The notes: generated by a model not told the origin, from the letters alone. A DNA stretch of 64,000 bases from Eremomyces bilateralis CBS 781.70 (GCA_010015585.1 ML975157.1); one strand, 5' to 3'. Positions 42,365 through 61,851 are shown, numbered from the stretch's first letter. Made by a program: numbers and translations.

Positions 42365-43310
42365 TTAAGCCTTCAGTTGATTTGATAGAGCACCAACGTC
42401 TAGAGGGTGAGGAAGTGGATTGCCTGCCCACTCCGCAACCTCAGTACAGATTTTGGCCACCTCGGTCACAACACCCTCTCCGTTTCCCATTGCAAGGCTA
42501 GCTTTAAGATGGCTTCTTGCTTGTCTGGTGGAGCCACTCGCAGTAATAGCTGTTGCAATTAATAGCTGCGTTTGATGTTCGGCGAGCACACCCGATTTAT
42601 TTGCGCCTGCAACGCTGTAGCCCCATACCACTGTGTTTGTAGCCAGCCTCATCTCAGGAAACCCGATCGAAAGCAGTTCCCGCACTTCAGGATTGTTGAC
42701 CTTTTCGTATGTCCTAGCAATCATGGCTTTTCCTTCTTCTAGATGTACCCCCGCATCCAAGTCGCCCCTAATTGAATTAACACTTTTCCAGGGAATCGTT
42801 GAACGATAGTCCGGCTCCTAGCCTTTCGTTTCAACATACCGCACTTTCTGAGCCCCAATAAATTCAATATTTCTTCGCTGGAGGACATTTACAATGCCCA
42901 GGCCCGCAGGTACTGTCCATGGAATGCCAACGAATGGCCAGATAACCGTGATACATTCTCTTATTTTGTAGAATATCGCCTTGATTTCTTCAATATCTGT
43001 CGTACCTTCAATTGCTTCTTCAAAAAGCTTGGACGCACAGTCTCCTCTATGCGTGCCGACAAAGACCGCGGCCTATATCTCCTTGTCAGTGGGATGCATA
43101 TCACCGCAGGTTGTCTTGTCTTTGGTGAAAACGTACCAAGACAGCATAGCTGTAATACTTCCATTCGTCCTCTCCAAATGAGAGCAGACGCTTCCTTAGC
43201 GACGTCACCAATTCCGATGAAAAACCAGGTGCCCCGGGTCTGATATTCGCCGAAACATACCGCGCTTCAAATTCCGCTTGCTCATCGCCAGTTGGCTTTG
43301 ATTGTGCCAT
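42365..43310 (-). CDS. AhpD/carboxymuconolactone-decarboxylase-like helical protein (paralog A), 3 exons
   Basis: Spliced: MAQSKP...RPGAPGF...YAVL|AAVFVGTHRGD...IRECITVIWPFVGIPWTVPAGLG...KVR|GDLDAG...QLLIATAITASGSTRQARSHLKASLAMGN. The all-helical pattern resembles fungal AhpD-like proteins. Confidence 0.7.
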
Positions 43311-43543
43311 GTTGAAAAAGTAGCATACAATTTTATGCCTTGCTAATTGTTGCAGTGGTGGAGATGTGGCAGCTCGAGGAATTCGACTAAATGTACATGG
43401 GAAAGGCCAGAAAATATCCCGTAGTAGCTAGGCTAGTGGGATGATTTGGCGCATATTTGAGAGTGCACTCTTTCTCTTTGAGAGGCGGTCCCTTATTCTC
43501 GCGGAGTGGGACGTAGACCTAGTGAGTGAGTGAGTCTGGGCTA

Positions 43544-43589
43544 CGGAAGTGCGGGGAGCGGACCCGGTTTGTGCTACGGAAGAACGGGG
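43544..43589 (+). promoter_or_regulatory. Two CGG-N5-CGGGG sites in the AhpD-A/FMO1 divergent promoter
   Basis: CGGAAGTGCGGGG (43544-43556) and CGGAAGAACGGGG (43577-43589), each preceded by GCTA. Confidence 0.65.
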
Positions 43590-43801
43590 GTCTCATGCAT
43601 GGGCGATTCCATTGTTGGCTCACGGTGGAGCAGAGTAAAAAGCATGAGCAAATAAGCGGTCAGTTCGAGTTAAGTACTAGGTGTGGCACCGTGAGGCTGA
43701 AATACAGCAGGAGGTGCGTAGTACGATTCAGATCTCAGGCGAGGAAAATTAACCTTCAGAGCAGCTGTCATTTGCCGCTCATCACGACTGCTTCCATCCA
43801 A

Positions 43802-45490
43802 ATGGATCCTTATATTCCCTCTTTCGATGTCCTCGTTATAGGATGCGGTCCAGTTGGCCTTTTTGCAGCATATCTTCTGGGACAGCGCGGAGTTCAAACC
43901 TTGATTATCGACAAACACGTAACAAGAAGGGGTCAACCCAAAGCCCATGCTATAAATCCACGTTCGTTGGAGATTTTTCGTCAGACCGGCCTGGACGTTC
44001 CTTGTTTACGTCGTGCCGGACTTCATCCACAAGATGTCGACTTGGTCCGCTTTGTTTCTTCCTTTTACGGGTGGGAGTTCGGTAATCTTCCGTACGAGCG
44101 ACAGTTGGACGACGTCAAGGATGTTACCCCTGAGCCGCTGTTCAACATTGATCAGCCCAGTCTGGAAGAGTACCTGCTTTCGGAAGCTCTCGAGTCCCCG
44201 TATGTCATAATTCAAAAGCCAGTCGAGTGGAGGGCGGCTCGAAGCATCGCAAACGGCGATGTAATTTCAACCTTGTACGACCGACAAACGGACAAGTCTT
44301 TTGAAGTCCAATCACGCTACATTATTGCTTGCGATGGATCGCGCTCTACCGCACGAGAAGTTTTGAAGTTCAAGCTCAACCCTCTTCCCGATGTCGAGTG
44401 CAAAACAACGGACTATGTCACTACTCATTTCAAAGCCGACCTGTCGGGTGGGCGCTCCGGTATTCTCTTCTTTATAATGCAGCCCGATGGCTTGAGAACA
44501 TTTATCCGCTATGGTGCGGTTGACTGGGTGCTCGTCTACAGGTTCAATCCCGAAAAAGTTCAGCCTTCGACATTCACTGAAGAAGAGTGTTCCCGCCACA
44601 TTCAGGCAGCTCTAGGAAAAGACGTTGAGTTTGAGATCTTGAGCATCACTATCTGGTCCACCACGCCTCGCATCGTGGAGTCCTACCGCTCCTCCCTGGT
44701 CAAAAATGCGTTCCTTGCTGGCGACTCGGCGCACACATTCTCTCCAACCGGTGGACTGGGTCAAAACACAGGCTTCGGCGATGTCCATAACCTGGTATGG
44801 AAGCTTCTGATGGTCATGAACGGCCATGCTTTGGATATCCTGATGGACTCATATGACGAAGAGCGCATAACAGTAGCAGTTGCGAACGCACGTCAAAGCA
44901 CCGTCAATGAAGCCAAAATGGATGTTTTAGGACAGACTATCAATCCGGCGAGCGAACGCGGCCATGGTAGCCAAGAATGGGAGAATGAAGACTTTCAGTA
45001 CAAAGTTCGAGAAGCGATCCAGCACAATGCCGACCACTTTGACTCGCTTGATCTGCAACTTGGCATGATTTACAACAAGCTGCCGCGACCGACGGACCAG
45101 AATGTTTCCAAATTTGTTCAAAAAGCAGTTCCTGGAGCCCGATTGCCTCATGCTTGGGTCGAATTTGGTGGAAAGGTTGATGCTTCATCCCTGGACCTTG
45201 TGGGCTATTCGGACCTCACTCTACTATGCCCCGACCTCGTGCTTGCCCATGAGCTAGAGTCCCGACTTTCCGCAAATGTACGAGAATTGGTACAAATCAA
45301 GATTCTCGGTAGTCATTTTACCACCAACAATACCGACTGGCTCGATATGCTTTTTACCACGCAAAGGAATCGGGCAGTGCTCGTACGTCCAGATCAGCAT
45401 ATCGCCAGCCTTCTTGATTCTACATCATCTATGGTTCAAGCTTTCAGGTCTATCAACCTCGAAGTCCCCAATCCTCCTTCCTTCTCGTGA
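43802..45490 (+). CDS. FAD-dependent aromatic hydroxylase (FAD_binding_3, TfdB/PheA-type) FMO1, intronless
   Basis: VLVIGCGPVG, ACDGSRS, FLAGDSAHTFSPTGGLGQNTG, PGARLPHAW and LVRPDQHI. The likely start is MDPYIPS at 43802. Confidence 0.9.
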   Translation: MDPYIPSFDVLVIGCGPVGLFAAYLLGQRGVQTLIIDKHVTRRGQPKAHAINPRSLEIFRQTGLDVPCLRRAGLHPQDVDLVRFVSSFYGWEFGNLPYERQLDDVKDVTPEPLFNIDQPSLEEYLLSEALESPYVIIQKPVEWRAARSIANGDVISTLYDRQTDKSFEVQSRYIIACDGSRSTAREVLKFKLNPLPDVECKTTDYVTTHFKADLSGGRSGILFFIMQPDGLRTFIRYGAVDWVLVYRFNPEKVQPSTFTEEECSRHIQAALGKDVEFEILSITIWSTTPRIVESYRSSLVKNAFLAGDSAHTFSPTGGLGQNTGFGDVHNLVWKLLMVMNGHALDILMDSYDEERITVAVANARQSTVNEAKMDVLGQTINPASERGHGSQEWENEDFQYKVREAIQHNADHFDSLDLQLGMIYNKLPRPTDQNVSKFVQKAVPGARLPHAWVEFGGKVDASSLDLVGYSDLTLLCPDLVLAHELESRLSANVRELVQIKILGSHFTTNNTDWLDMLFTTQRNRAVLVRPDQHIASLLDSTSSMVQAFRSINLEVPNPPSFS

Positions 45491-45762
45491 CAGCTTCCTA
45501 GCTTATCAAAAGCTCTGGTAGTAGCTGAACCAGATACATAAACCAAGTTGGGCCCATGATAGAGAGAGAGTAGACAGATAAAATGATAACTGGCAATTCA
45601 TGAAATGACTCAATGAGTCGTCTTAAATAGTAAAGTCGAGTTGATGCCGTATTGAAGTGACATGTTTGGGACTCGGCAGGGTCCTATCGCACTTGTCACT
45701 GGTTCAAGCAACTTCGGGAAAGGATTTTCTCTTGCGGCAAGCAAATCTATTGATACAAATTT

Positions 45763-47493
45763 TTAGACGCAGAGACTCAAGCACTCTACAAGGTCCTCTT
45801 TCGATCCAATGAATCCCATGATGTGTTGATCTGGTCTCACTAAGAGCGCCGCCGATGGAGACAAATGTGCGGCCCTTATCCAAGCCGCAGGAATTCGCCG
45901 CTCCTTCACATCGACAACTACCACAAGATCCTTCAGATCTTCAATCCAAGAGGAGTGGAATTTAACTGCAAAAAGCGTCAGTTTCCTTTCGGATACTAAG
46001 TCAAGCGTTGACGCCTTCCTTCCAACGCCATCGATCTGAAGCAGCCACGCGTGGGGTAATCGTGCACCACACTCGAAACTCGGTTCGTATAGGGAGCAAT
46101 CTTTGCGAAGAAGCTCTTGCGGAGACTTCGAAGCCTCGACATCATTGTATACGTATCCCAATTGAAGACCAAGACTGTCAAAATGATCTCGATTCCGCTC
46201 AATCGCCGTGGTGATATCGTTCTTGACCTGAGATTGGAGCATAAGCTCGGGTAATGCCGCTGACATATTTGAGACCGTCTCCAGAACCACCGCATCCAGC
46301 TGCCGCATATGTTGTTCGTTTACGGCAGATTGAATAGAGTTGGCCACCGCGACGGGTCTCCGTTCGGTGGTGTAAGTTTTAAGAAGACGTTGAGGAGTAG
46401 CTGTCAAGCCATCCAAAACAAATCTCATCTTCCAGACGAGGTTATGTGCGTCGGCAATGCCGGTGTTGACTCCGAGCCCTCCCATCGGTGGAAATGTGTG
46501 CGCTGCGTCTCCCGCTAGGAAAATTCGTTGATGACTATCAGAGTAGGAGCTCGCCGTTCTCGGCCACGTTGACCAGATTTGCACAGAATGAATCTTGATA
46601 TCGCTCAGAACGCCCGGACCGATGGCAGTTTTAATCTCTTTTTTGCACCTCTCGACGGTAAAGTAGCCCAAAGGTTCCTGAGTTATATCAGGAACTGGCC
46701 GAGCATATACCCATTCCGGATTTTTGTATCCGATGAAACCGCCATGCCTCGTATCTGGCGAACAAAAGAAGTACAACTGAGCCACTCGTCCATTGGTATA
46801 TGAAGAGAGGTCCATCGTGCAATGTACGGAAACGTAGTTCATCAGACCTCTATCGTCGTCGATCGCCTCCAGCTGGACTCCAGGGATTCGTGACCTAACA
46901 GTGGAATTCGTGCCATCTGCTCCAACGACAAACTTCGACTCCACTTCCAACACCTCGTTATGCCCTCGTTGCTTGATTCTGGACCTCACAATCTGTCTTT
47001 CTGCGTCGTATTCATAGCTTTGCCAATCGTGAGATCGATGAATCGTAACGCGGCCAGTTCCAAGGACCTCTTCTTGCAGTGCTTGCTCCAGAATCGGCTG
47101 TGAAAGATTGAAAAGAGGTTCCGGAGTCAATTCCTCCACGGCTTTATCTTGCCTCTCATAGGGCAAACACCCTATTTCATCTCCCGTTAGGTGTGTTAAA
47201 AACCTGACACGATCGCCTTCCTCCACAGGAACGCCCTTCTGTCTCAATTCGTCCAGGTCAATGCCAGCCTGCCGTAATATCTCGAGTGATCGCGCGTTGA
47301 TAGCATGTGCCTTAGGCTGCCCAAGTCGAAGGGCATGCCGTTCAACAATGGTACTATTGATTCCTTGTCTCGCCAGCAGTAGTGCAGTGACCAATCCAAC
47401 AGGACCCAGTCCCACCACCAGCACAGGTGTAGACAGTGGCGATTTGCTGAAGAGCCTTTCATCCCGCGTGGGAAGTGGATCAAAGTAGGCCAT
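45763..47493 (-). CDS. FAD-dependent aromatic hydroxylase (TfdB/PheA-type) FMO2, intronless paralog of FMO1
   Basis: VLVVGLGPVG, GADGTNS, FLAGDAAHTFPPMGGLGVNTG, GARLPHAW and LVRPDQHI. ATG 47493 is preferred because a TATA-like element at about 47560 is too close to the alternative ATG at 47529. Confidence 0.9.
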   Translation of the reverse strand: MAYFDPLPTRDERLFSKSPLSTPVLVVGLGPVGLVTALLLARQGINSTIVERHALRLGQPKAHAINARSLEILRQAGIDLDELRQKGVPVEEGDRVRFLTHLTGDEIGCLPYERQDKAVEELTPEPLFNLSQPILEQALQEEVLGTGRVTIHRSHDWQSYEYDAERQIVRSRIKQRGHNEVLEVESKFVVGADGTNSTVRSRIPGVQLEAIDDDRGLMNYVSVHCTMDLSSYTNGRVAQLYFFCSPDTRHGGFIGYKNPEWVYARPVPDITQEPLGYFTVERCKKEIKTAIGPGVLSDIKIHSVQIWSTWPRTASSYSDSHQRIFLAGDAAHTFPPMGGLGVNTGIADAHNLVWKMRFVLDGLTATPQRLLKTYTTERRPVAVANSIQSAVNEQHMRQLDAVVLETVSNMSAALPELMLQSQVKNDITTAIERNRDHFDSLGLQLGYVYNDVEASKSPQELLRKDCSLYEPSFECGARLPHAWLLQIDGVGRKASTLDLVSERKLTLFAVKFHSSWIEDLKDLVVVVDVKERRIPAAWIRAAHLSPSAALLVRPDQHIMGFIGSKEDLVECLSLCV

Positions 47494-47640
47494 GATTTCT
47501 TGTTTGGAGGTATCGCAGGGCGGTAACATGCATTCGATGACAAGGGCGAGGAATTACTATATAAACCCCTGTTGGCTTGTGCACTCTCGCGGGCTACCTT
47601 TAGCCTTCCGCCTTCGCGGCACCAGCGACTGGGCTAGCTT

Positions 47641-47653
47641 CGGCAAAACGGGG
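47641..47653 (+). promoter_or_regulatory. CGG-N5-CGGGG site upstream of FMO2
   Basis: CGGCAAAACGGGG. Confidence 0.55.
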
Positions 47654-48130
47654 CAGAGAGCAAGAGCGGAGCTTCGAGGCAGCGCGGCGGGCCGCTTGGC
47701 TAGGGGTAAAAGCGCCCGGTAGGTGCGTGCCGGGAGAGCACCGTCGGTAGAGTGGCGTGGAAGGACGTCATTCGGCAAGGGCAAAGGCGGACCGAGAAAT
47801 GAACGCCCTATATGGTACGGAGTACGGAATATCACCACGCTATCTCAATCAGCTTTTCTACAATAGGTAGCGTTCCCTAACTTAGGTCATCGGAGACATA
47901 GATAGTGGACTATCCCCTTGAAATATCACCAGAAAATTTGAGCACGCAATCCCTATTGGCCATCATATGCTTATCAACCAGACAGTCTGAGCATTTGAAT
48001 TTGAACGCGATGATGCTTCTAAACAGTTCTATATCTCGAACATAAAATAACACACTTTCAATCTGGTTTCCGGGCCCCCTGATGTAAAATAGGGTTATAG
48101 AGCGTCACCTCTTTACTGCTCACCCAAAAA

Positions 48131-49445
48131 TTACGTCAGTCTAGCTTCGCGTGGTCGCAACGCGTTGCCGTAGTCGCCAGCATTGGGAGCTCTTTGGATG
48201 GAGTGAATGTGATACTTTTCCGGATTCTTGTTATTCAAGAAAACTCCAGAGTGGTGGTCAAACTCGACAACTACTACCGGACTCTGAATTCGGTAGTAAA
48301 AAGGATCCTCATCACCGTAGCCTCCGACCCAGCTAAACCATGTGTCCTGGAGATGTTTTTGTATCTGCTCTTTTCTCTTCTCCCAAACCGTATCGGGTAG
48401 GTAGATGAGCATTTCGCGCAAGATAGAGAACACGAGCGAGATCTGTGACTCAGACATCGCTGTTAGCCGGATACCCTCATATGGAACAATGCGGTTGTCC
48501 TGGAAGGCACCGCATAAGTGGCGCTGATCAGCTTCGTTCCAACGCCCTGGCTCACAACCTTCCATGCGTGGATCTTTGTACACTTGCGCTGTGCGCTTTA
48601 GGGAATCAGGAAGACTCTGCATCAGAGCAAGCCCAAGCTGCTCTTCTGGACGCATCATGGTAGTGCCCTCCCATATACCCTCATCAATCTCGTTGGGTTC
48701 CGCCCCTATGAAGACGGGTGCAGCCATCATCCAACGTCGGTCCAGATAAACACACATGCAAACATGGTGGCCCCAGAAGTTCCATCCCCAAGCTTTATCG
48801 GCGGATGGCTCTCCGAAAAGGATAAAGTTGTAAGATCGTTGATTAAGTACTTTTGGACCATGGGTCAGTTGTCCGAGGAAGTGGTTGGCTCGCATCGCGT
48901 TAACTAGCTTGGCATATCCCGCAGGTGACAAGGTAGCTTTGATAATTCCAAGGATTGCATCGCTAAGCTGCTCCGAAACTTCGTCCAAACGAAGCCCGTA
49001 CTTCGAGATATATATCTCTGGATTCGACCAGCTCCTCCACTGTCGAGCATTGACAGGATATGTCAATGCCTTTGACTCAGCGGGGGTGCACAACGTAAGA
49101 GCTTGCTCCGCAGCCGTGACAATGGTCTCCGATTGGACACCTTGATCTTCATATTCGTACAAGTTTGGGACGAGGTTTCCTTCAATAGGGTGTTAGCCGC
49201 TTTGCTTAGCGCGAACACATGGAACTCGGGTAACTTATACCGTCAGAAGTCAGGCCTTTGTAGGGTTCTTCCCATAATTTCAGCCACGTCTCAGTAAGCT
49301 TCTTCGCAAAGGGGTTCTTGTAGAACTCGTCTGCCCACGTATGAGCGTCATGATGCGGCAACGCTTCGAATTTTCCGCTCGTCAGGTCAGGTAAGTAAGC
49401 ACGGTATTTGCCCGTTGGGCGTGTATCAACACTTTCATCCTTCAT
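48131..49445 (-). CDS. DUF3500-family protein, 2 exons
   Basis: MKDESV...EPYKGLTSDG|NLVPNLYE..., with RQWRSWSNPE, WGWNFWGHHVC, PVFIGAEP, YYRIQSPVVVVEFDHH and HIHSIQRAPNAGDYG, all characteristic of DUF3500. Confidence 0.85.
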
Positions 49446-49767
49446 CTTTTGATAACAAGTAGCTGCGTGCACAGCGGACTTCGCGCGTGTACCAGATGCA
49501 GTGGTGTAGTAAACTATGCTCGCCTGGTTGCGTTGCTTCGCAACTGGTCCGCTTTGAGCCAGATTTGGGAAAATGAGAGTTGTGTACGGAACAGATTAGA
49601 GCAATTTTAGCAACGCTATTGGAACCACAAGACAGTCACAATCCGAAGGGCCTTGATGCCGGGAATCATAGCCGAATTATAGATGACAAGGGTAGGCCAG
49701 AGGATCCCTTTGAGAAACTGCCTCAGAAACAGGTATGAGGTGTCATGATTAGCATGTTGGCCATTTC

Positions 49768-49854
49768 CGGTTGTCTGGGGGAGGTCGGCCCCCGCTGCGC
49801 CGCAAGTCGTAGGTTGTACCGGCTTCAAGGTTTGATCAAACCCCCACAGAGCCG
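49768..49854. promoter_or_regulatory. Three CGG-N5-YGGGG sites in the DUF3500/AhpD-B divergent promoter
   Basis: + CGGTTGTCTGGGG 49768-49780; - CGGCGCAGCGGGG 49790-49802; - CGGCTCTGTGGGG 49842-49854. Confidence 0.65.
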
Positions 49855-50057
49855 ACAACGGCGAGCCATGTCGGCAATCAAGAACGAGAACGAGCGAAGC
49901 AGCTATCCGTTCATTTCCGATGGGATGCTAGCATTGACTCTACACAGGTATTTGTATGACTGGTAGACTGGTAGAGTACTGATACGTTGCTCTTCAGGCG
50001 ATTCGAAAATCGAAATAGCACTGAAAGCAGCTCCCACCTCCAAGTACATCCAGCACC

Positions 50058-50907
50058 ATGTCCGATTTCGACTCCAAGTACGTCACTACCAATAACCGGC
50101 CAGGTGCACCGCAGTATGATGATGCATTCGTCAATTCGTTGAAAGAAGATATGCTATCGGAGGCACCAGACCTAGCGCTAATAGCCGACGCGGTCCTGGT
50201 ATGTTCTTGACAAGCCACGAGACATCCATTGAAATTGTGCTGATTACATCCTGTATCAGTCATCTTGCGCTATTGGGGCGCATCGAGCGGATTTCGTGCC
50301 ACGATTGCTTGATGCCGCACTCCAGACCATTCACCAAGATATCGAGAAATCAAAGGTGTGCTTTGAGCAGTTCAGGGCCGTGGTCATGATATGCTGGCCA
50401 TTCATTGGCATTCCATGGTGTGTCCCGGCCTGTTTGGGCATGGTAAATGTCCTAGAAAAGTATAACCTGCTTTCAATTGCGTACGGTCGCGCCCAGCCTC
50501 CGTTGAGCGATGCACACATCGCCATGGGCCAGGAGCTTCAACAGCGCACCTACGCAAATGTGCAGAATTCCGAAGTGCAAGCCATGCTCCAGAACTGTTT
50601 TGCAGACTTTACATTAACGACTTGGGGGGTCGTGTTCGGCTATTCGCTTGCAGAGACGACGAATAGAGGCATTTTCGAAGCCCACCAGTCGCAGTTGATT
50701 CTTGCCGCGTCCATTGCCTCAAGCGGAGCGACAAGGCAAGCGAGGTCGCATATGACAGGTGCATTGGGCCTCGGGCTTTCAGTGGCTGCAGCCAAGGCTA
50801 TATTGAAGGCTGCGAAGAGACTAAATGAGTGGAACGGTGTCGAAATCAGCGACATTGATGCCGGAGAATTGAATCGACAAATGGAAGCAGCCCAAGCTGC
50901 AAAGTAA
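50058..50907 (+). CDS. AhpD/CMD-like protein (paralog B), 2 exons
   Basis: MSDFDSKYVTTNNRPGAP...ADAVL|SSCAIGAHRAD...ICWPFIGIPWCVPACLGMVNVL...QLILAASIASSGATRQARSHM. It is clearly homologous to 42365-43310 and shares the position of intron 1. Confidence 0.72.
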
Positions 50908-51087
50908 CGAGATAGATAAACAATCCTATAAGAACTTTGTTCTTGAACCTTAAAAATCTGTACTGGCAAAAACGGAATGCAATTTCTTGCGTACATTGAA
51001 TATGCCAATACCCTTTTGCTATCCAACTGCTGTAACTGCCCTATGCCTTTGAGCCTGGACCAAAATGCCACCTACTGCTTGACTTTA

Positions 51088-53032
51088 TCAGCCCTGAGGA
51101 ATGAATGGTACAAGTAAAAGGCTGTCATATTCGCCGCCAGCATGAATTAAGATTCTGCCGTTGTTCAGTGTTTTGGGAGCATCCACCCAGGGTAACAACT
51201 CAGGTCGCAGGTTGAAGCCAGCAACCGAGAGTTGCATTTTCTCGCCTCGCTCCCAGATCATTCCATGTGGCCACATTTCTATCTCCACTGGCACAATCTC
51301 ACCCTCGCTCTTTAAGGTTTGGATATTGCGATGAGTGTAGTGGGGCTGGTGCGGCGTTGATCGCTCGATGTCCAGTTCCCTATGGCTGACCCGGAGGCGA
51401 CCATGTGCACCTTCAGAGAAGAATACATTTACACGCGGATCTCCTGCTGCATGCATCTCTCGAAGTTTCTCCTTGGCAACCTCGGGATTATCTTGGAGAT
51501 ATCCAACATCAACACACTCAGTTTCAACAAGGCCGCCATTGGCGTCCAACTTCGAGAACTTCGTGAAAAGATCAATGTCGTCGTTTCCGATGGCCTGGAC
51601 CCAAAGCTTCAGTTTGAAATAACCTGTCAGCTCAGCCTTGCAGGGAAAGGTGTAAGTAAACTTGGCAATGTCCTTCCTGCTGTCTAGGTTAACTGTATCC
51701 GGGTTCGTTGGTTTATTCCCCCATTCCAGACAGGATGTCGATGCATTCAGGTAGAGAGGTATTGATTGTTGCCTCGTGAGAGGAAATTCAAGCTCCGGCC
51801 GATTGACAATGTCCTGATTCCCTGGGTTGAGGATGGACAAGCGGACCTTGGGTGTAAATTCCCAGCCGTTGGATTTGTCCTTCATGAAGTGGTCGTAGAA
51901 CTTTCGAAGATCTTCAACATTTTGAGGGTAGTACAGATCTAAGATCGTTAGCGTCAAGCTAAACTTGGTTAGAGCATGCGGATCTACCCGGCCATTCATG
52001 ACTATTGTGAACCCTCAACCACTTCTTCGGGCTACTCGATTCGGACCATCCGCGGAATGTACCCCGTGTGTGCAACATATTAGTCCAGCTTGCAACAACG
52101 TACAGTGGTATCTTAATGTTTTCCACCTTAGCTCGACGGTCTTCCCAATAATCGTTCCAAGTTGGGTACTTCGCAGTCATTGCGGACACGTCTTCCGTGC
52201 GACCTAACCCTACAAAGCAATTATCCAGAAGATTTTGTTGAAACTCCGCATCTGGAATGCCACCACGTTGGACGGTGTCATTGTACAAATCATTCCATCC
52301 TTCCCACGGAGCCAGACAGGTCAGATGAGGAGGCGATTCCGCACCGACCCACCACTGGGTTTGTGCGAGATATGAGTTGCCAGCCATAGTCACTCTGACA
52401 TGTCGTAAGTTCTTTGTTAAATATGATGGAATTGTCATTACTAACCGCTTATTGGACCACGGCTGCTCAGCAATCCATTCAACAATGTCGTATCCATCCT
52501 TGCCGTCTAATGTGGAATTGATGTATACATCACCTTCGGACATCCACGTACCCCGGGTATCTTTACTTGAGACTTAATACGAATCTGATCTGTTTGAGTA
52601 GGATAGCAACTTACCTGGGTGAACCAAAGCATAGCCATGCAAACACCAGTATGCCGGATCTAGGGCTTCGAACTTCTCCAATGAACTGACAGTCTTTTGA
52701 GGGATTCCATTGCGCCACGGAGCGCGGTCGGTCCCCATGCGGTTCAAGCCACCCTGCTTTCCAAAACCAGCACTCGATATGATCGCAGGAATTATTTTGC
52801 CGCCATTGGGTGGCCGAAAGACGTCTGTGTATATCGTGGTCCCGTCTCGAAGCCTCAACTCGACATCCTTTTCCCAGAGGATATCGCAAGGCAGCGCCAA
52901 TGCTCCATCTTTCAGAATAGAACCCTTTGTAAGGAGTTCAGTCTCTTGTTTGAACCCCAGATAGAGGGCATGGCCTTGAGTAGTTGAGGGGGACTCTTTC
53001 AGAATAATATCAATCTCACCGATCTTGTCCAT
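51088..53032 (-). CDS. CocE/NonD family (peptidase S15) serine hydrolase, 4 exons
   Basis: LRDGTTIYTDVFRP, FEALDPAYWC..GY, DGYDIVEWIAEQPWSN, nucleophile elbow GNSYLA, PPHLTCLAPWEG, and a C-terminal PepX_C-type domain containing GRLRVSHRELD. Confidence 0.9.
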
Positions 53033-53187
53033 TCTTGTGGATCTTGAATGAAAAATCAGTTATATTTAAGCCGAAGTAGAGGGAAATAATCAGACTGAGA
53101 AATGCTAGCTAAAACAAACCTTTTGAACTAGACCCTAATGGCTAGATACTAATGTAGGAATATGGTAAGCCATGAGCAAATCAGGAT

Positions 53188-53200
53188 CGGAAGCGTGGGG
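53188..53200 (+). promoter_or_regulatory. CGG-N5-TGGGG site in the CocE/FAH divergent promoter
   Basis: CGGAAGCGTGGGG. An N6 variant, CGGAAGTGGTGGGG, follows at about 53210. Confidence 0.6.
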
Positions 53201-53358
53201 CCGGCCTATCGGAAGTGGTGGGGTGGCACATTGTTTACTAACTGCTCTTCACTGCTCGGTGCTCCTTTCCAGCTTCGACCCATACTGGCAGTCATCAATC
53301 ACATTCTAGTTTCGGAAATCACTCTGAACAAAATCTTGCTCTTGTTCAAACCTACGCG

Positions 53359-54281
53359 ATGGCAAGTTGGTCAAAGCTAGTTCGTTTCACGGATTTAGCA
53401 GGCAATATCCATTTTGGAGAGCCGACAGATGACTTCAGTCACGCCAAAGTCTGGGAAGGAATTTCGCTCTTCAGCCTTGCAAGAACTGACCGGGTCGAAA
53501 GGATTGCAGCTGTAGGTTCCCAAAGCAATTACACAATGACCAGTTTTCTCACTGTACCAAGCTTTTGCCGCCTTATCAACCCGATTCGATCCTTTGCATA
53601 GGCCTCAACTACCTAGATCATGCAAAAGAATGCGTAAGGCTCTTGTTCCCAACACCCAACAACTGAATGTCTGGTAACCTCTGGCAATAGAACCGCCCTA
53701 TACCCAGCTATCCAGTCCTATTCTACAAGCCGAAACTCACCGTGAATGGACCTTTCTCTGATGTTGTGGTTCCACAACACTGTAAGAGCCTGGACTACGA
53801 AAATGAGCTTTGCGTTGTGATGGCACGAGATGCAAAAGATGTCGCTGAGAGTGACGCCATTGACTATATCTTGGGCTATACTGTTGGCAATGACGTGTCA
53901 TCCCGGGAATGGCAGCAACAGGAGCGTAGTGGTGGTCAGTTTTCGTTTGCGAAGTCGTGCGATGGTTTCCTGCCATTTGGTCCAGCAATCGTCTCGGCTC
54001 GTCTCGTCCCGGATCCTCAAAATCTGGCTCTCGTAACTAGGGTTAACGGAGAGGTTGTGCAAGATGGTTCTACATGTAATATGATTTTCAGCGTTGCGAA
54101 GATTATATCATTCTTATCTCAGGGAACCACAATTCCAGCAGGAGCCCTGATTATGACTGGTACTCCAGCAGGAGTTGCAGCCTTCAAAACATCACCCCCT
54201 GTTTGGCTAAGGAATGGCGACGTGGTCGAGTGTGCTATCTCGGGTATAGGTTTCATCAAGAACAAGATGGTCACCCAATAG
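53359..54281 (+). CDS. Fumarylacetoacetate hydrolase family protein (FAHD/acylpyruvase-like), 3 exons
   Basis: CIGLNYLDHAKE, PVLFYKP, LDYENEL, GYTVGNDVSSR, AKSCDGFLPFGP and IMTGTPAGV. Confidence 0.92.
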
Positions 54282-54779
54282 ACTAGTGTAGGATCGGAAG
54301 CACTACTTGAGCTAAAGGCTTGCTATTACAGATTCATCAAACTTCCATGATTCGATCCAAGAGTTGAACAGTTAGCTGCATAGACATCAATAGTCTCGCG
54401 ACCTTACCTCAGTTGCCAACATTGGCGACGGAAACCCATCGGATCGGAACGCTACGACCTACCTGCTCTCGTTAGGTGCCGCAATGGACGAATTTAGCTT
54501 TGTACCAGGTAGCGTGCTCAAGCTGTACGATTTCATAGTATATTACATATATGCAGATTATTTTGGATTGAGTGGAGAAGGTACAATGTTATTGAATTGG
54601 CTACTCAGTGAAGCACACAGCAGAGCGACCTACTGGGTACCTTATCGGATAATTCATGTAGAGCCGGGGATTACAGTTTGCTTGTGCGCGCATATTCATA
54701 CTATAACGTTAAGTTAACTAGTGGTTGTTGTTAACTAAGTTATAACTAACTATATTATGTGAGTGACTAACAGTCGTCC

Positions 54780-56299
54780 TCAGCGAAGCTCGGGTGCATC
54801 ATACTCCTTGGACCAGCCCACTGCTTTTGATATCGTGGTGAATGCACCTCCAACATTCAATGCCGCCGCCATAAAGTACAGAAATAGCTTCCCGCAGACT
54901 GAGTCTGTGTCTGGGAACTATATGAAGTCAGCAAATTCATCACAGATGAAGCTCTGCTACTTACACTTTGAGATGTCCCTCCGCTTTTTTTAACCCACTC
55001 GAAAGCACGGGGAACCATCTTATCCTCGTAATCTGTGACAGCCCTCTCATAGTCCTCATATTCTAGTGCTCTAGTCGATTTAAGTTCTGCCAATTGTAAA
55101 AGGGGCTCCAGAGCATCTGCGCAGTCATGTAAAGCCTGATTTGCACCCATGCCACGAGATGGTAGCATTGGATGGATTGCATCACCAAGCAGCCACACTT
55201 GAGGATGCCCGACCTCGAAATTTCCCGGTGAAGCAGCTTTAGCTTTCTTTCTCCACCCTAGAGAGATAGGAGTGGACACACGGGGTTTGACAATGTAGAT
55301 GTCGTCTTCGCTCACGACGTTAACGATATCGGTGAAACCTGGATGCCAATTTTTGACTTTTTCGAGCATCAGAGACTTTCTATCCACGACTGCCTCTAGG
55401 TTGGGGATGTCTGGTGTAGATGCCCAGTTGAACCCTACCATGATAGAGGCTTCTTCTTCATTGTAAATTGACTGCTTCTTCAAGGTGTCAGTGTCGTTCC
55501 CCCGGTCATCCATGTTCACTTGTTTGTCAGGCATATAGACTACGCAGTCAGTAAGACGCTGGCAACAGATTAAGGGGCTTGGGTAAGTGTGAGGTATATT
55601 CGTACCGGACATGAATGCCATAACGCCTTTGGAAGCGCATGCAATGCTCCCAGATTCGATCAATTGCTGGGGCAGGGTGCTCAACAACGACGGCGGCAGG
55701 GCTCCTTTCGATAGAAAGCCTTGTCTATCAGTCAACTCGACAAGATTTGACGCTCCGATCTGTGTATTGGAGCTGCTCCGGTTGCCATCAGCTGCAATGA
55801 GAATATCCGCATCATCCGTCGTTCCGTCCGCAAAGTGTGCCCTAACTCCCGATAGACCTTGCGTAACGCTATCGAGGGCCTCGTAGCGAACAAACTTTTT
55901 GCCGTACTGTAGGATGTTTCTTTCTCTCAACAGCTGTTGCAACAAGTCTCGGAGAAGTGCTCGATTGATAGGGGCTGACTTCGTGTACGCCGAATACTTG
56001 CGGAGGTCGAGAACGAGACTGAGCTGCGAGTCATAGAACACAGGTGCGGATGGCACGACACCTCCCGATCTTCCGAAACGCTGAAGCACAGAATTGTACT
56101 GCTCCTTAGTAAGGCATGCTCGAAAGCCAGTTAAAGCAGCAGCACCTAACCGGATTTGATATCCCCCTCGATTGGCGTCGTACTCGTCGCGTTCATAAAC
56201 CACGACATCTATCGGGGCTTTGCTGTGATTGATAAGGCCGTTCGCAATAAGAGATCCTGAAAGACCGCCACCAATGACTATTACCTTGAGAGGCGCCAT
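54780..56299 (-). CDS. FAD-dependent monooxygenase FMO3 (different subfamily from FMO1/2), 3 exons
   Basis: VIVIGGGLSG, GGYQIRLG, IAADGNRS and WLLGDAIHPMLPSRGMGANQA. The spliced last exon is FPDTDS...YDAPELR* with the stop at 54780-54782. Confidence 0.88.
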
Positions 56300-56412
56300 G
56301 GCTCAGAAAGATTGAACAAAGATATATTTTCACGCCTCTTTGTGAAGAAGAAACATACACATTTGTATCCGCTGCTGGAAACCAGCATGAAACATGCTCC
56401 AAAATAGTGCCT

Positions 56413-56425
56413 CGGTTGTGTGGGG
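56413..56425 (+). promoter_or_regulatory. CGG-N5-TGGGG site upstream of FMO3
   Basis: CGGTTGTGTGGGG, about 115 bp from the ATG. Confidence 0.55.
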
Positions 56426-56575
56426 TGGTGTGTAGGAAGCAACAAAGAGCTCGCCGCAGTGGAGTAAAACGGAAGGACACTCCCATCTTTAAAGAAGAGA
56501 CAAGAGAATAGAGTGTAGATGCAGATAACCCGGTATATATATTTAATTATAATATTCAGATAACTTAGTTAACTA

Positions 56576-56640
56576 TTGATTGATTGATTGATTCCTGCAC
56601 CCGTTCGGGCCAACATCGGCTAGCCCACTTGGGGAACTAA
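56576..56640 (-). mobile_element. Possible 3' tail remnant of a non-LTR retroelement
   Basis: On the minus strand a short GC-rich unit (CCCCAAGTGGGCTAGCCGATGTTGGCCCGAACGGGTGCAGG) ends in an (AATC)n tail inside (AGTT)-rich flanks. Confidence 0.3.
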
Positions 56641-57165
56641 CTAACTTATTATTCTTTCGTCTTCCTCTAGTTATTTTCTTTATCCCTTTTTTCCTTGTGC
56701 ATAAAGTCTTTAAGCCCACTGATCTGACTGAATTAGATGTCTAGTTTCCAATCTCAACAAGTATTAATATAGGAAGAATCGCGAAATATATGTACGTATA
56801 TAGACGGTAATACTGGACCGATATTCTGCTGCCTTGGTAGGCGGTCATTACGATAGCAGCATTTCGCTAACATTATATTGAAGTGGAAACCAAGTTGACT
56901 AATATCGTGTTATATGAAAATGAAACTCGATGGAACTCTCTAGAGAGTTCTTGAATGTTTGCGCAAGCTATTATTACAATTATCTCCGAGTGTTATGGTT
57001 CCAGGCCTGTGGCTTGTCTCCTGAATGGTAGTCACGTGACTAAGTCAACTGTCGAAGTCTTCGACATCGCGCACGCGTCGTAGATAGCTCTTCTTCTTTA
57101 GCTTTGCAGTAAATGAAAGTGGTTCTCGTAACTTCTGCGATCAAACCGTCTCACCGAGGACATAA

Positions 57166-59280
57166 CTAGCGCCTGGTTTGCCCATGACCTGATTCAAATC
57201 TCGCACCTCGCGAGCGCCGAAACCGCCAAGTGCTCATCGACTGGCGAAGAGCTTTGCCTTTGATATAGAATGGAATTCCAAGGAGGCCCAAAAGGCTCAT
57301 AATACCAGCATATGTACCAAAACATCCATCGAACCCAGCTCTGGTGACAAAGTCGACAACGCCATAACTGATACCAAACCCGACGATGTTACGGTAAGCA
57401 CCGACGGCAATAACTATTGGACCAGCCAAGTCTGGAAAGCACTCGATACCGTACGTGGTAGATATTACGTTAGCTGCTATGAATCCGAACTGCTGGACCC
57501 CTGTCATGACTAGCGGAACAGCCCAATGGAATCGATCAGCGTGACTGCATGATATTCCGAAGATGAGCGTGCCAACAGCGCCACAAATGACGGGGAGGAT
57601 CAAGTTTGGAAGTTGATGCTCGGGCTGTCGTTAAAAATGTCAGCATGGAGTATTTAGACCAACTGGCTAGGTTAAGTACTGACCTCGTGTACCCCGTTAT
57701 TCCTCTTGGCTAGGAATTGGATAACCCTATCCCCACCAAAACCTATAACAGGGATCGCGACCAAGCTAGAAACAGCAAGGGGGATAGTGGACAGCCCAAT
57801 TTTATCCGGACTCCAGCCATAGTTGATGACAAGAACATTGCCTAGGACAAGACCAGACGACAGAACCACGCCAATGAAGCATGCATTTAGGCATACAAGC
57901 TTACGATGTTGTTAGATAAGTACATGTACAAAGCCGAAAGGAGCGCCTACCCATATGATGTTCGGGAAGAGAGCACACCGGAGAAGGTCCGTGCAAGTCT
58001 CCCACATTTTCTGGGCGCCAGTTTCGCTCGAAGTAAGTCGAAGGCTGTAGAGGTAGGACCGATCCCGACCGCTCGGACGTACAGGCTCAACGAAGCCATC
58101 CGTTCCTTTAGGAGATAGGCCCGCTGGATATGTTAGCTCTTCGGAATATGCCGATAAATTGCAGTAACTCACCAAGGTCGGCTTCCGTTCGAGCCCAGCT
58201 AGTCTCGGGTATAACAAGGCCTATCAACACTAATGCAGTGGCTCCGATGAAAGCCAGAATCCAGTAATACCACCTCCAAGATAGAGCGGAAACGATATAC
58301 GTGGACGCAATACCAAGTCCTGTCCCAACAATCCCACCGGTGGACCATAGGACGGCGAGTTTAGAATTACGATTGTGAACGTAGTTGATGTCTTGAATAA
58401 TGAGCGGCGCCAGTGACTCGACTGCTCCCACACCGAGACCTAGTACACAACGTGCTCCAATATGAGAGTAGAGTCCGTGATCTTTGCCATTGGATGCTGC
58501 TGCCCAGCACAGGCATACGACTACGATAGCCGCATCGAGGACCATCATCAACCTTGTACCAGTTAATTGTGCCCCGAGGATCGACAATATTCCGCCCAGG
58601 CCAACAAATAGCGATGGAAGTGTCCCAAGCTGACTAATGGTCTGTTGACTCGGCTTTCCAGGCACAGATGGAAAGGATATGCCTTCGTAATGAGTCTCGC
58701 GGCGAATGAGTGCACCACTGGGCGGAATGCCACCAGGGGGTAGACCGCTCGGAGGAAGACCATCCGATGGCAGAACACCAGGAGGCAGACCACCAGGGGG
58801 CAGACCATTAGGAGGAAGACCACCTGGCGGCATGCCAGCGGAACCCATGGACATCATGTTCGGATCTAAGTCTTGATAATAGAGACTAACGGTTGGTAAG
58901 ATGGCTGCAATAGATTGCACAGCTGTCAATCCAGCAGCAGCAACTGAGACTATTAGAAAGGCGCCCCAAGAGATGATGATACTCTTACAAAGGCAAATCG
59001 TGAATAGAACCGCCCACTTGCGCCTCTCTGGGATTCTCAATGGATCTGAAGACTTTGTCAGCATGGTGGTCGCTGAAATTCTATCGTGGTATCTCCGCGC
59101 TGTAGTACCATTGGGATCCGATGATGGAACTGGAATCAACTGGATGGTTCCCGTGGAGTCATAGAGGTTGATAGTGCCATCAGCAACTTCCTCCCTATCG
59201 CCTCGCGTGGTCATATCTCTTCCTGCCGATGCAGTTCTTTCCTCTTGGTGGACCACACTGGGTTCTTTCTCGGGGTCCAT
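57166..59280 (-). CDS. MFS transporter with a Gly/Pro-repeat insertion in its first loop, multi-exon
   Basis: PVPSSDPN|DPLRIPERRKW, ARCVLGLGVG, IQDINYVHNRN, LSWRWYYW, IPETSW, PEHQL and YGIECFP, with about 12 hydrophobic segments across the exons. Confidence 0.85.
58714..58836 (-). repeat. 15-nt coding tandem repeat (G-[LMI]-P-P-x, about 8 copies)
   Basis: GMPPG GLPPN GLPPG GLPPG VLPSD GLPPS GLPPG GIPPS in ORF 58108-59280. Confidence 0.85.
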
Positions 59281-59725
59281 TGTAACGGCAAGTCAAAGTT
59301 GTCCACCACGGTAAAAGAGAATGAATGAGCCAAAATACCAACGAGAGTTATATGCGATGTTCTCTATGACCCAAGTCCGCAGCACTGAGCGATCGGCCTT
59401 TGCGGGGTACATATCATGTTTATGTACAAGGTGTTAATGACGTTCTTCTAACCTGACACAAGGTTCACCTCTGTATTCCTATGGGCCAAAGGATAGAAAA
59501 AGGGCAATATTTGTGGCGCTTCATATCATAGCGATCAGCTATCATCCGTACCTCACTTAACTTGGTGCCATACGGAGGCAATGAGCCGGTCGATTAAGCA
59601 CAAATTACTCTATCCAAGATCCACATTGTCTCAGGCAATAGGCCAGGGTTGATTTCCGAGAAGAGATGGCCTTGAATTGGGGCGAGGTCGGATATCGAAG
59701 TCGGCATTGTGGGCATACTCACTGT

Positions 59726-59738
59726 CCCCGCACAGCCG
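59726..59738 (-). promoter_or_regulatory. CGG-N5-CGGGG site in the MFS/MBL divergent promoter
   Basis: - CGGCTGTGCGGGG. Near matches are CGGCATTGTGGGC (59702) and an N6 variant at about 59394. Confidence 0.55.
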
Positions 59739-60010: not shown

Positions 60011-61144
60011 ATGGTCGAAAAGCAAACAATCGAATGGTTTGGTATGGCTGATATGGGTTGATTATATCGCCGTCATTGCTGATGAAACCAAGGCGCCACC
60101 ACTTTTCGACTTAGAGCTAAAGGCTTGACAATCTTTCTTGACACGTGGTTGGAGAGGCCGTCAAACATACCAACATATGCCTCCATTGACGATATTGATG
60201 AATGCGATTACATCTTTATCAGCCATGCGCATTTCGATCAGTATGAATTATGAACTGACGCAAGACGCCCTGAACTGACTCTTTGCAGTCTCCCTGGCGC
60301 TGATCGCCTAGCGAAAAAGACCGGCGCAACTATAGTTGGAAACGGCGAGGCCGTGAGTGTCATGCGTGCGGCTGGCGTACCAGAAGAACAGCTTCTGCCC
60401 GTTGCCGGCGGAGAAAGGATACCTCTTTTCTCAAAGTCTATCAGGGACGAAGTGCGATCGCAGTTCAGGGAGTTTCCAAGAAGTCGCGGGCCCCCAGGTC
60501 CGCCTAGGCCAGATGTATCCAAAGCTTCACTGTCGGTGCATGTATACCCCAGTCTTCACTGCCTCATGCCTGGGCCGCCAGGTCAACATCTCGATTTCAT
60601 CGACACAGCAACTGAGTACATTGGCGGCTCTGATCCATATGCTGGCACAATCGACATTACTATGGGGATGCGATATGGCTTGCTGGCTGCTGCGAAAGCT
60701 CCTCTGAGCGCCCGTGCTCAAATGCCTCCAGATTTCAGGCCATTTGTCGAATACATAGCGGATGAGAGAAACAAGTTCTCTAACTTTGACGGAGGCCAAA
60801 TGATGTATAACTTTTTTCTCGGCGAAAAGACACTATTATATATGTCACATCTAGGCGGATATTCGGGTATCCTGAAAGAGCTCGAACCACAACCCGACAT
60901 TCTTGTTATGGGCATCGCTGGGCGCGGCAATATCAATGGCCGGCCTTTTGATGGCTCAGCTGCACAGTGTGCGACGAACATCATCAAGTGGCTGGGTGAG
61001 CCGGAAAAAATTATATGGTGTCTGCACGATAAGGCTCCAATCAAACCATTCCGCGTGGAAACCGAGGCAGCAGCGAAGATGGTAGAGGCCGAAACTCGTT
61101 CGCGAGTTTTGACTTTGGAACATGCAACTGTGTATGATCTATAG
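60011..61144 (+). CDS. Metallo-beta-lactamase-fold hydrolase (UlaG/Lactamase_B_3-like), 3 exons
   Basis: Spliced MVEKQTIEWF|GATTFRL...IFLDTWL...YIFISHAHFDH|LPGADRLA provides HxHxDH. Later motifs are PSLHC and WCLHD. Confidence 0.88.
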
Positions 61145-61678
61145 CTGTTTGTAGACGAGTTGGGAGAATCATTATGCAGCAGTGCCCGACCTTGGGACAT
61201 TCTCCGAGCACTTGCAATCCCTTTCCCGTGTTTGGGCGCACAGAATTTCGCGTTGATGACCCCGGATCTGGCAGCTGAATTGAGTTGCTGGCGAATTACG
61301 GCTTACGGCAAATAATAATAATAATTCAATTTAACGTGCTATCCGGTTCCCGTTATGGTCTATGAACACGGACATTTGACTATTTAGTATGTCGCGGGTA
61401 AAAGTTTCCCCATTGCCAGGGCTATGGGTACGTAAAACCCCACCTCCTCCTTTGTGGTAGTAATTGTCCTTTCGTTTTTGCCTTCGTGGCTCTCCTTCTT
61501 GGTCGGTGCTTCCGCGGCGTGGTGGAGCAATACAGCAATATTGCTCCCCGTCGCAAGTTATCTCTTGGTTGATTTTTGGGCTGGCTGAGCCCTTTTTGTC
61601 CGTTGGGGTTATTATCCCTCACTCCGCTTTGGTTTTTTCGTTTTTGGAAAATGTCTGTTGCCGAAAATGTCCGTTGTA

Positions 61679-61851
61679 CAGTCAAACACCGCTATAACGA
61701 TTACCGCTACAGCGATATTCGCGTTATAGCGATAAGAAACCCTGCACGGATTCTCAATCAATGCTGCTAATAAAATTCGTTTTAGCGATATCCGCGTTAT
61801 TCCGATTGGATTCACCTGTACAGATTCAATCGTTATAGCAAAGGTTGACTG
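61679..61851. mobile_element. Tc1/mariner (pogo/Tigger-like) MITE, 173 bp
   Basis: TA|CAGTCAAACACCGCTATAACGAT ... ATCGTTATAGCAAAGGTTGACTG|TA (19/23 TIR match). Internal repeats of AGCGATAT(T/C)CGCGTTAT. Confidence 0.8.

Follow-up and report, generated by a model that had tools for sequence, protein, structure and literature searches.

Does a short sequence word that recurs along a gene cluster mark a common regulatory site, and by what kind of protein would it be read? The question is raised by nine copies of a 13-base motif, CGG-N5-YGGGG, which lie within the six intergenic regions of a ten-gene cluster of approximately 19 kb (Table 1), itself contained in the 64-kb stretch of DNA analyzed here (the window). 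Judged from their sequences, the ten genes probably constitute an aromatic-compound degradation cluster. Matches to PF01494 were obtained for three of them (flavoprotein monooxygenases), and the protein of gene C was 51-58% identical to named DUF3500 proteins from Aspergillus and elsewhere, with 53% identity to one named from A. terreus. Genes of the cluster are transcribed, as demonstrated by RNA contigs which derive from a single RNA-type run and whose depths cannot rank expression. The two introns of gene 1 are putative and do not appear in the RNA table. Intergenic limits were set by gene models based on spliced RNA contigs and translations, giving four bidirectional and two unidirectional regions with a summed length of 3508 bp.

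Table 1. Genes of the cluster and copies of the motif, in order of position within the window.
Feature	Position	Strand	Sequence	Description
Gene 1	42365..43310	-		~270 aa; resembles carboxymuconolactone decarboxylase (CMD, E=0.037, below cut-off); paralogue of gene D
Copy 1	43544..43556	+	CGGAAGTGCGGGG	bidirectional gene 1/monooxygenase A region; 234 bp to gene 1 ATG, 246 bp to A ATG
Copy 2	43577..43589	+	CGGAAGAACGGGG	33 bp past copy 1; 178 bp upstream of gene A RNA contig 5' end (43767)
Gene A	43802..45490	+		FAD aromatic-ring hydroxylase, 562 aa, intronless
Gene B	45763..47529	-		FAD aromatic-ring hydroxylase, 588 aa; paralogue of A
Copy 3	47641..47653	+	CGGCAAAACGGGG	103 bp upstream of monooxygenase B RNA contig 5' end (47538)
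Gene C	48131..49445	-		DUF3500 protein, 417 aa; intron 49179-49239; PF12006 E=2.2e-104
Copy 4	49768..49780	+	CGGTTGTCTGGGG	bidirectional DUF3500/CMD-like D region; 72 bp beyond DUF3500 RNA contig end (49696)
Copy 5	49790..49802	-	CGGCGCAGCGGGG	faces copy 4, GGGG ends 9 bp apart
Copy 6	49842..49854	-	CGGCTCTGTGGGG	154 bp upstream of gene D RNA contig start (50008)
Gene D	50058..50907	+		CMD-like, 262 aa; intron 50198-50258; Atlas score 0.96 to CMD-like fungal clusters
Gene E	51088..53032	-		S15/CocE-NonD-type hydrolase, ~615 aa; two introns, exact positions uncertain
Copy 7	53188..53200	+	CGGAAGCGTGGGG	bidirectional region, S15 hydrolase E (ATG 53032)/FAH-like F (ATG 53359)
6-bp-spacer variant	53210..53223	+	CGGAAGTGGTGGGG	22 bp past copy 7; local duplication of copy 7
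Gene F	53359..54281	+		fumarylacetoacetate-hydrolase-like (FAH), 271 aa; introns 53512-53561, 53634-53690; PF01557 E=1.2e-63
Gene G	54857..56299	-		salicylate-hydroxylase-like FAD monooxygenase, 462 aa; two introns
Copy 8	56413..56425	+	CGGTTGTGTGGGG	114 bp upstream of monooxygenase G ATG (56299)
MFS transporter	57166..59280	-		615 aa; five introns
6-bp-spacer variant	59394..59407	+	CGGCCTTTGCGGGG	114 bp from MFS ATG
Copy 9	59726..59738	-	CGGCTGTGCGGGG	bidirectional region, MFS transporter (ATG 59280)/gene J (ATG 60011)
Gene J	60011..61144	+		344 aa; HxHxDH stretch; weak metallo-beta-lactamase-fold (MBL) match (E=0.009, below cut-off)

A pattern search of the window returned 12 exact matches to CGGNNNNNYGGGG, and at least 12 were found in none of 100 dinucleotide shuffles of the window (mean 4.8 matches, maximum 11). 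Nine of the matches fell in the cluster's intergenic regions, and these were the same nine, in coordinate and strand, which an earlier note on this DNA had listed. The chance expectation for 3508 bp was 0.136 copies by 5000 dinucleotide shuffles (maximum 3) and 0.17 copies by the rest-of-window rate, so that the figure of ~0.2 given previously was sound. No copies were present in the cluster coding sequence (~15 kb), and the 60.5 kb outside the six regions contained only three (19834+, 27635- and 27682+), each within a long open frame outside the cluster. Sites were present in 6/6 intergenic regions, which serve ten genes; as four of the regions are bidirectional and two unidirectional, at least one copy lies upstream of every cluster gene, as had been proposed. 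For genes A, B, C and D, copies were located 72-228 bp outside the ends of the spliced RNA contigs. The copy at 56413 lies within the RNA contig of its own gene, G, which extends to 56519, and copy 9 is separated from the transporter ATG by 446 bp; the MFS-J intergenic region is spanned entirely by one RNA contig. Copies 1 and 2 belong to a 23-nt local duplication, copy 7 and its 6-bp-spacer variant also arise from a local duplication, and the sites therefore represent approximately seven independent loci rather than nine. No flanking similarity was observed among the copies apart from these two local duplications.

To correct for the post-hoc definition of the motif, all dyads of a 3-mer and a 4-mer separated by N0-12 (~213,000) were enumerated without bias. 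By count, CGG-N6-GGGG ranked first with nine hits, and no other dyad occurred in 6/6 regions. When 1000 shuffled sets were analyzed in this way, the best dyad reached nine hits in three sets and some dyad occurred in all six regions in 20. With 1000 sets of real segments taken from positions 1-42000 of the window, at least nine hits together with 6/6 regions were produced by a dyad in 5 sets, while some dyad with at least nine hits, regardless of coverage, was found in 157.

The two halves of the motif are coupled, and neither is enriched alone in the cluster promoters. A CGG was positioned exactly at -8 (8 bases upstream) of 9/16 YGGGG words in cluster promoters versus 3/224 elsewhere (Fisher's p=3.7e-10), and within the window this contradicts the possibility, raised in the earlier note as one which would count against a joint motif, that only the SYGGRG half matters. 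Densities per kb in cluster promoters were 4.56 for YGGGG and 27.6 for CGG, versus 3.70 and 32.3 elsewhere in the window; for SYGGRG the values were 5.13 versus 4.86 in the rest of the window. With respect to spacing, an N4 spacer was found in 10 copies in the window with none between 42 and 62 kb, and an N6 spacer in six copies, two of these in cluster promoters. Replacement of Y by R gave four copies in the window and none in the cluster, and a window scan for CGG with single base changes detected none in any cluster promoter. Alignment of the nine copies demonstrated an invariant first CGG (9/9) and a second half which is CGG in five and TGG in four. Every copy had at least one T at -2 or -1 relative to the CGG (hand-estimated chance ~6e-4 at T=0.25). 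Spacer preferences were mild, positions 6 and 8 being G in 6/9 copies and position 7 being T in 5/9. Positions 8-13 fit SYGGRG in seven copies, the remaining two being ACGGGG. We judge the motif to be a real cis-element, far above chance and confined within the cluster to promoters.

At the level of sequence, this architecture (CGG, a 5-bp spacer, CGG or TGG, and a T immediately 5') corresponds to that of the direct-repeat sites bound by the Zn2Cys6 factor TerR from Aspergillus terreus. As described by Gressler et al. 2015 (PMC4360782), TerR sites (CGGHHHBNCGG / TCGGHHWYHCGG) occur in nearly all promoters of the terrein cluster, a 4-bp spacer is not bound and a 5' T increases affinity. Like the TerR sites (TCGGHHWYHCGGH), the copies reported here are direct CGG-type repeats exactly 5 bp apart with the 4-bp spacer unused (nine N5 versus no N4 in cluster promoters); they carry one or two T 5' of the first CGG and are spread over almost all promoters of a single cluster, several of them bidirectional. 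The 5' CGG is likewise the invariant and, by prediction here, the essential half. The 3' half differs, being C/TGG followed by invariant GG here and CGG followed by H in the TerR sites. The cluster here is catabolic while that of terrein is a polyketide cluster, and terR is located inside its own cluster whereas no regulator gene was found in the cluster or window here. A CGG-N5-CGG core is also shared with the motif of CLR-1 from Neurospora crassa, given as CGGN5CGGNCCG in PMC4620465. CLR-1 is a Zn2Cys6 protein which governs a catabolic regulon, and its gene is distant from most of those it controls. It requires a third triplet, CCG, and this is absent here; the CLR-1 regulon is moreover cellulolytic and dispersed in the genome. 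Relative to the CreA/Mig1 sites of PMC8844935, SYGGGG is present in 7/9 copies and those with Y=C contain the CGGG core, but the CreA word alone is not enriched here and a fixed CGG 5 bp upstream is not known from any CreA consensus.

Regarding the protein which reads the motif, a six-frame regular-expression search of the 64-kb window for a Zn2Cys6 domain (C-X2-C-X6-C...C), which an intron-split domain could escape, gave no hits, and no match to the Zn_clus or Fungal_trans Pfam models was obtained in 83 scanned ORFs (19, plus 64 from a set of 160 with lengths of 100 aa or more). The absence of a regulator from the cluster, as claimed earlier, was therefore borne out within the window. A trans-acting factor is the natural reading of this result, which also leaves site and factor without a positional link. 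The previous attribution of the motif to a Zn2Cys6 protein held in part: the strict 5-bp spacer and the 5' T match the TerR site type, while only the first CGG is invariant and the second half is TGG in 4/9 copies. These last features were counted against the reading which follows, as were the invariant GG after the second half, the SYGGRG fit of seven copies, the missing positional link, the RNA contigs that cover copy 8 and the MFS-J region, the local duplications and the post-hoc definition of the motif. We consider, with a probability of roughly 0.6, that (T)-CGG-N5-(C/T)GGGG serves all ten genes as a functional upstream activating site, read most likely by a Zn(II)2Cys6 activator which is specific to the pathway and whose gene lies beyond the window. 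In the manner of TerR on the terrein cluster, such a factor would recognize direct CGG-type half-sites exactly 5 bp apart: the invariant 5' CGG would be contacted by one zinc-cluster module, with the 5' T contributing, and the C/TGG on the 3' side by another. Where copies are clustered (two in the gene 1/A region, three in the C/D region, and two in the E/F region), cooperative, inducer-dependent activation may result, the targets of which would be the four bidirectional and two unidirectional promoters. We infer that the factor would be of the Zn2Cys6 class, that it would activate rather than repress in response to gallate-type or other hydroxy-aromatics, and that the ten genes would form one regulon.

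Since 7/9 copies fit SYGGRG, the 3' half could be a target for a C2H2 protein, and the site may be composite or of a non-Zn2Cys6 type. In this unlikely though credible case, either a multi-finger C2H2 protein would cover all 13 bp, or two proteins would be placed in fixed geometry, with a zinc-cluster monomer at the CGG and, at YGGGG, CreA or a different C2H2 protein that binds GGGG, and one word would integrate induction and carbon-catabolite repression. Consistent with this, SYGGRG with a CGGG core is the word derived from CreA ChIP-seq, and CreA and AlcR summits are less than 50 bp apart at ~80% of co-occupied promoters, according to PMC8844935. The invariant GGGG run differs from the 3' half of the TerR sites given in PMC4360782, and the mild spacer preferences also favor a composite site. 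Against it, the two ACGGGG copies lie outside SYGGRG, competition for binding is reported not to be a general mode of CreA action (PMC8844935), and the combination of a strict 5-bp spacer and a 5' T has been documented for a zinc-cluster protein (PMC4360782). Neither SYGGRG nor YGGGG is enriched in the cluster promoters, and CreA sites alone thus fail to explain the pattern. The overlap with CreA sites suggested in the earlier note is no more than a match of words in seven copies.

That the copies are ordinary CreA/Mig1 sites which mediate carbon-catabolite repression only, with the upstream CGG incidental, is already disfavored and we regard it as extremely improbable. Glucose repression is common for catabolic clusters, which was counted in favor of this explanation along with the SYGGRG fit of seven copies, but the position of CGG at exactly -8 (9/16 versus 3/224), the lack of N4-spacer and R variants in the cluster, and a SYGGRG density equal to background all argue against it. 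It is also very unlikely that the motif is a chance, post-hoc pattern or a functionless by-product of duplicated promoter DNA. The motif was picked after viewing the sequence, two copy pairs are local duplications, genes A and B as well as genes 1 and D are paralogue pairs, and some dyad reached at least nine hits in 157/1000 real-sequence sets. Such hits were, however, combined with 6/6 regions in only 5/1000 of these sets, and the Y at position 9 and the 5'-flank T, each present in 9/9 copies, lay outside the dyad test. In addition, the copies share no flanking similarity beyond the two local duplications, and ~15 kb of cluster coding DNA is free of them.

In its gene content, the cluster resembles those of the 1,2,3,5-tetrahydroxybenzene (gallate) pathway of Ascomycota (Martins et al. 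2023, PMC10832562), as judged from sequence. In common with these clusters and the TanR/TanX module (PMC10512348), it contains genes for flavoprotein monooxygenases, an FAH-like protein, a DUF3500 protein and an MFS transporter, which were assigned here by domain. It differs by the additional presence of two CMD-like genes, an S15 hydrolase gene and an MBL-like gene, and by having no transcription-factor gene in the cluster. Transcription-factor genes are present in related clusters of other fungi (Figure 3 legend of PMC10832562), which was counted in favor of the proposed activating site and its regulator. No gene for the conserved 'short protein', which has no domains, was recognized in a search conducted without a reference sequence; a single short ORF adjoins the FAH-like gene (54394-54717), and it was unlike a conserved protein. 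A metagenome scan recovered relatives at 26-42% identity only, with no orthologous cluster among them. A term search of the text of PMC10832562 and PMC10512348 found no regulator DNA motif for the pathway. The 13-mer may, although we consider this quite doubtful, be an obligate composite operator, with a zinc-cluster monomer on T-CGG and CreA or another GGGG-reading C2H2 protein on YGGGG at a fixed 5 bp. Were this the case, each cluster promoter would compute 'aromatic inducer present AND glucose absent' at one site, and the motif would be the first DNA target described for a regulator of the recently discovered 1,2,3,5-tetrahydroxybenzene pathway.

An exact search for the 13-bp element CGG-N5-YGGGG, written as CGGNNNNNYGGGG, returned 12 matches within the 64-kb window, against a mean of 4.8 and a maximum of 11 in 100 dinucleotide shuffles. 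Nine of these were the copies, numbered 1 to 9 by position from 43544 to 59726, which the earlier note had assigned to a ten-gene cluster; each coordinate and strand was confirmed, and the cluster is a putative aromatic-catabolism one. All nine lie in the six intergenic regions between the cluster genes (3508 bp in total, four of the six bidirectional), and none was found in the approximately 15 kb of cluster coding DNA. Intergenic DNA of the window beyond 43.5-59.7 kb contains no copy, and the three off-cluster copies (19834+, 27635- and 27682+) each fall within a long open frame far from the cluster. The number expected in the six regions was 0.136 on average from 5000 dinucleotide shuffles, which never gave more than three, and 0.17 from the rate in the rest of the window.

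Genes were identified by Pfam scans of open frames combined with a language-model look-up. Ten were placed between 42.4 and 61.1 kb, with starts and spliced translations derived for the models, and are presented in the table. The RNA-type run X3, labelled 'RNA?', was used solely for gene models; no covering run is on record as RNA. It displayed 13 canonical GT..AG or CT..AC spliced joints which were absent from the DNA run X1, and runs X4 and X5 provided next to nothing. The model of C, at 417 aa, is as long as a named protein at NCBI whose sequence over the queried exon is 100% identical. Two paralogue pairs are present, gene 1/D with common stretches such as WPF-GIPW-VPA-LG and A/B at approximately 38% identity, and their sequences suggest an old internal duplication. 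Two stretches, 56576-57128 and 61344-62000, showed a several-fold to about 10-fold depth excess in X1 and very high depth in X3, with numerous loose ends at their borders in the read data. Both resemble either dispersed repeats or elements with high expression that flank cluster genes. Neither is similar to the other or to any other DNA of the window, and scanning the window against Rfam and for tRNAs gave no match, these stretches included.

Genes of the cluster and 6-bp-spacer (N6) variants of the element
Feature	Coordinates	Strand	Description
Gene 1	42365-43310	-	CMD-like (from a single exon), D paralogue
A	43802-45490		phenol-hydroxylase-type FAD monooxygenase, convergent with B
B	45763-47529		phenol-hydroxylase-type FAD monooxygenase, convergent with A
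C		-	DUF3500
D	50058-50907	+	CMD-like (from a single exon), gene 1 paralogue
E		-	S15/CocE-NonD hydrolase
F		+	fumarylacetoacetate-hydrolase-like
G		-	salicylate-hydroxylase-like monooxygenase
MFS transporter		-	
J		+	weakly MBL-like (from a single exon)
N6 variant	53210-53223		CGGAAGTGGTGGGG, in a cluster promoter
N6 variant	59394-59407		CGGCCTTTGCGGGG, in a cluster promoter

With respect to placement, both strands are used among the cluster copies, and the copies at genes A, B, C and D are located 72-228 bp beyond the RNA contig ends, which is the usual position of a fungal upstream activating site. Contrary to this clean upstream picture, copy 8 (56413) lies within the RNA contig of gene G; the MFS-J intergenic region is spanned entirely by one RNA contig. 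The region between gene 1 and A holds two copies 33 bp apart inside a 23-nt local duplication, that between E and F has a copy 22 bp from its N6 variant, both inside a 20-nt duplication, and that between C and D has three copies, of which two face one another. Once local duplications are counted singly, about seven independent loci remain. The start-to-start distances of neighbouring copies (33, 22 and 22 bp at 43534-43589, 53186-53227 and 49768-49802) are multiples of about 11 and may place the copies on the same helix face, although coincidence is possible and the first two pairs belong to the 23-nt and 20-nt duplications.

The off-cluster copy at 19834-19846 (TTCGGTTGTATGGGG) is full-strength, is flanked by TT, takes third place in the window by position weight matrix (PWM) score, and has nearly the same spacer as copies 4 and 8. 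It lies in an open frame upstream of an ORF with an SCA7 domain and is probably a chance occurrence, since chance alone should supply about 4.5 copies across the rest of the window. The other two off-cluster copies are held by a 704-codon minus-strand open frame (27326-29437), which is G+C-rich where they lie and had no match in the Pfam scan.

No component word was enriched in the cluster promoters over the DNA elsewhere: per kb, YGGGG occurred at 4.56 versus 3.70, SYGGRG at 5.13 versus 4.86, and CGG at 27.6 versus 32.3. What distinguishes the cluster promoters is the geometry of both halves. A CGG exactly 8 bases upstream accompanied 9 of the 16 YGGGG words in cluster promoters and 3 of 224 elsewhere (Fisher's p 3.7e-10), and another 2 of the 16, the N6 variants, have the CGG one base farther; only four N6 copies occur elsewhere in the window. 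None of the 10 N4-spacer variants in the window lies between 42 and 62 kb, none of its four R-for-Y variants lies in the cluster, and no single-base change in CGG was present within any cluster promoter. That the copies are plain CreA sites was therefore rejected on this geometry together with the spacer and base controls.

Because the element had been defined after it was seen, all dyads of a 3-mer, an N0-12 spacer and a 4-mer (approximately 213,000) were enumerated. CGG-N6-GGGG had the highest count (9) and was the sole dyad present in all six regions. Shuffling 1000 times gave three sets whose best dyad reached 9, and 20 in which some dyad covered all six regions. A null drawn from real sequence (1000 sets of six random segments of matched lengths from window positions 1-42000) reached at least 9 in 157 sets, and at least 9 together with all six regions in 5. 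Two regularities fall outside the dyad test: Y at position 9, and a T in one or both of the two positions immediately 5' of CGG, each in 9/9 copies. In a leave-one-out PWM the held-out copies ranked 4th to 29th among approximately 128,000 positions, which adds little to the exact-match tests.

Zinc-cluster proteins recognise CGG triplets at fixed spacing. The closest documented case is TerR of the terrein cluster, for which PMC4360782 describes a motif finder run on intergenic regions that returned CGGHHHBNCGG in nearly all promoters. In SPR, according to the same paper, the 5' CGG was essential, the second monomer was recruited by the 3' CGG, a 4-bp spacer was unbound, and a T before the 5' CGG gave a 6.5-fold gain in affinity. 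The motif core of Neurospora CLR-1 is likewise CGGN5CGG (PMC4620465). Like TerR sites, the element has an invariant 5' CGG, a strict 5-bp spacer, a 5' T and a one-cluster distribution; unlike them, it accepts TGG in its 3' half (4/9 copies) and has an invariant GG after that triplet in all copies. From the features in common with TerR and CLR-1 sites, the element is read as the predicted site of a pathway-specific Zn2Cys6 activator (probability about 0.6), which would bind it. Within literature containing CGGN5-type strings only TerR-related and CLR-1 work was pertinent, the Zn2Cys6 binding-motif literature made no mention of gallate among the matches listed, and term searches of PMC10832562 and the TanR/TanX paper PMC10512348 gave no regulator motif.

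The main rival, which we consider unlikely, assigns the G-rich half, or the entire word, to a C2H2 protein. The recognition word of CreA is SYGGRG, with CGGG as its core, and CreA often lies no more than 50 bp from the activator AlcR, although binding competition is not general (PMC8844935). As for the preferred Zn2Cys6 activator, the earlier statement that the cluster encodes no regulator was upheld: the Zn2Cys6 signature is absent from all frames of the window, and Zn_clus and Fungal_trans were absent from the 83 ORFs scanned (19, plus 64 of the 160 that reach 100 aa or more). The factor must therefore be encoded elsewhere and work in trans.

The gene set resembles the 1,2,3,5-tetrahydroxybenzene pathway clusters for gallate and related aromatics, a route described as recently as 2023, whose clusters comprise flavoprotein monooxygenase, FAH-like, DUF3500, short-protein, MFS and transcription-factor genes (PMC10832562). 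No short-protein gene was recognised in the present cluster. A 107-codon open frame (54394-54717) between the FAH-like gene and G lies where such a gene could be predicted by analogy with A. terreus; it is probably 3' untranslated sequence, and its translation is unlike a conserved protein. The closest relatives of gene A are merely about 50-53% identical, and named proteins from Aspergillus and other ascomycetes match C at 51-58% identity. Protein searches placed A-like and DUF3500 relatives (pairs P0009/P0126, P0002/P0158 and P0098/P0134) on equally long contigs, taken as shared, in Aspergillus pseudoustus, Leptodontidium sp. and Pseudogymnoascus sp., with neighbouring locus tags in the last. 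Distant ascomycetes therefore share the A-DUF3500 pairing, even though the best relatives of gene A reach only about 50% identity. A metagenome scan with an alignment of gene A and its 11 closest relatives matched 168 stretches, of which 108 were confirmed and 80 kept; these relatives were 26-42% identical, and no orthologous fungal cluster was among them.

These data indicate that the element is a real, sharply defined cis-element. It provides a handle on an unstudied regulator, yet is unsurprising in principle and otherwise a typical instance of fungal gene cluster wiring. Occurring in every one of the six promoters of a cluster related to those of the 1,2,3,5-tetrahydroxybenzene route, it offers a bait for a regulator search by DNA pull-down, one-hybrid or DAP-seq, a word for scanning the genome for unlinked regulon members, the regulator's own gene included, and a sequence-level criterion for the borders of the cluster.
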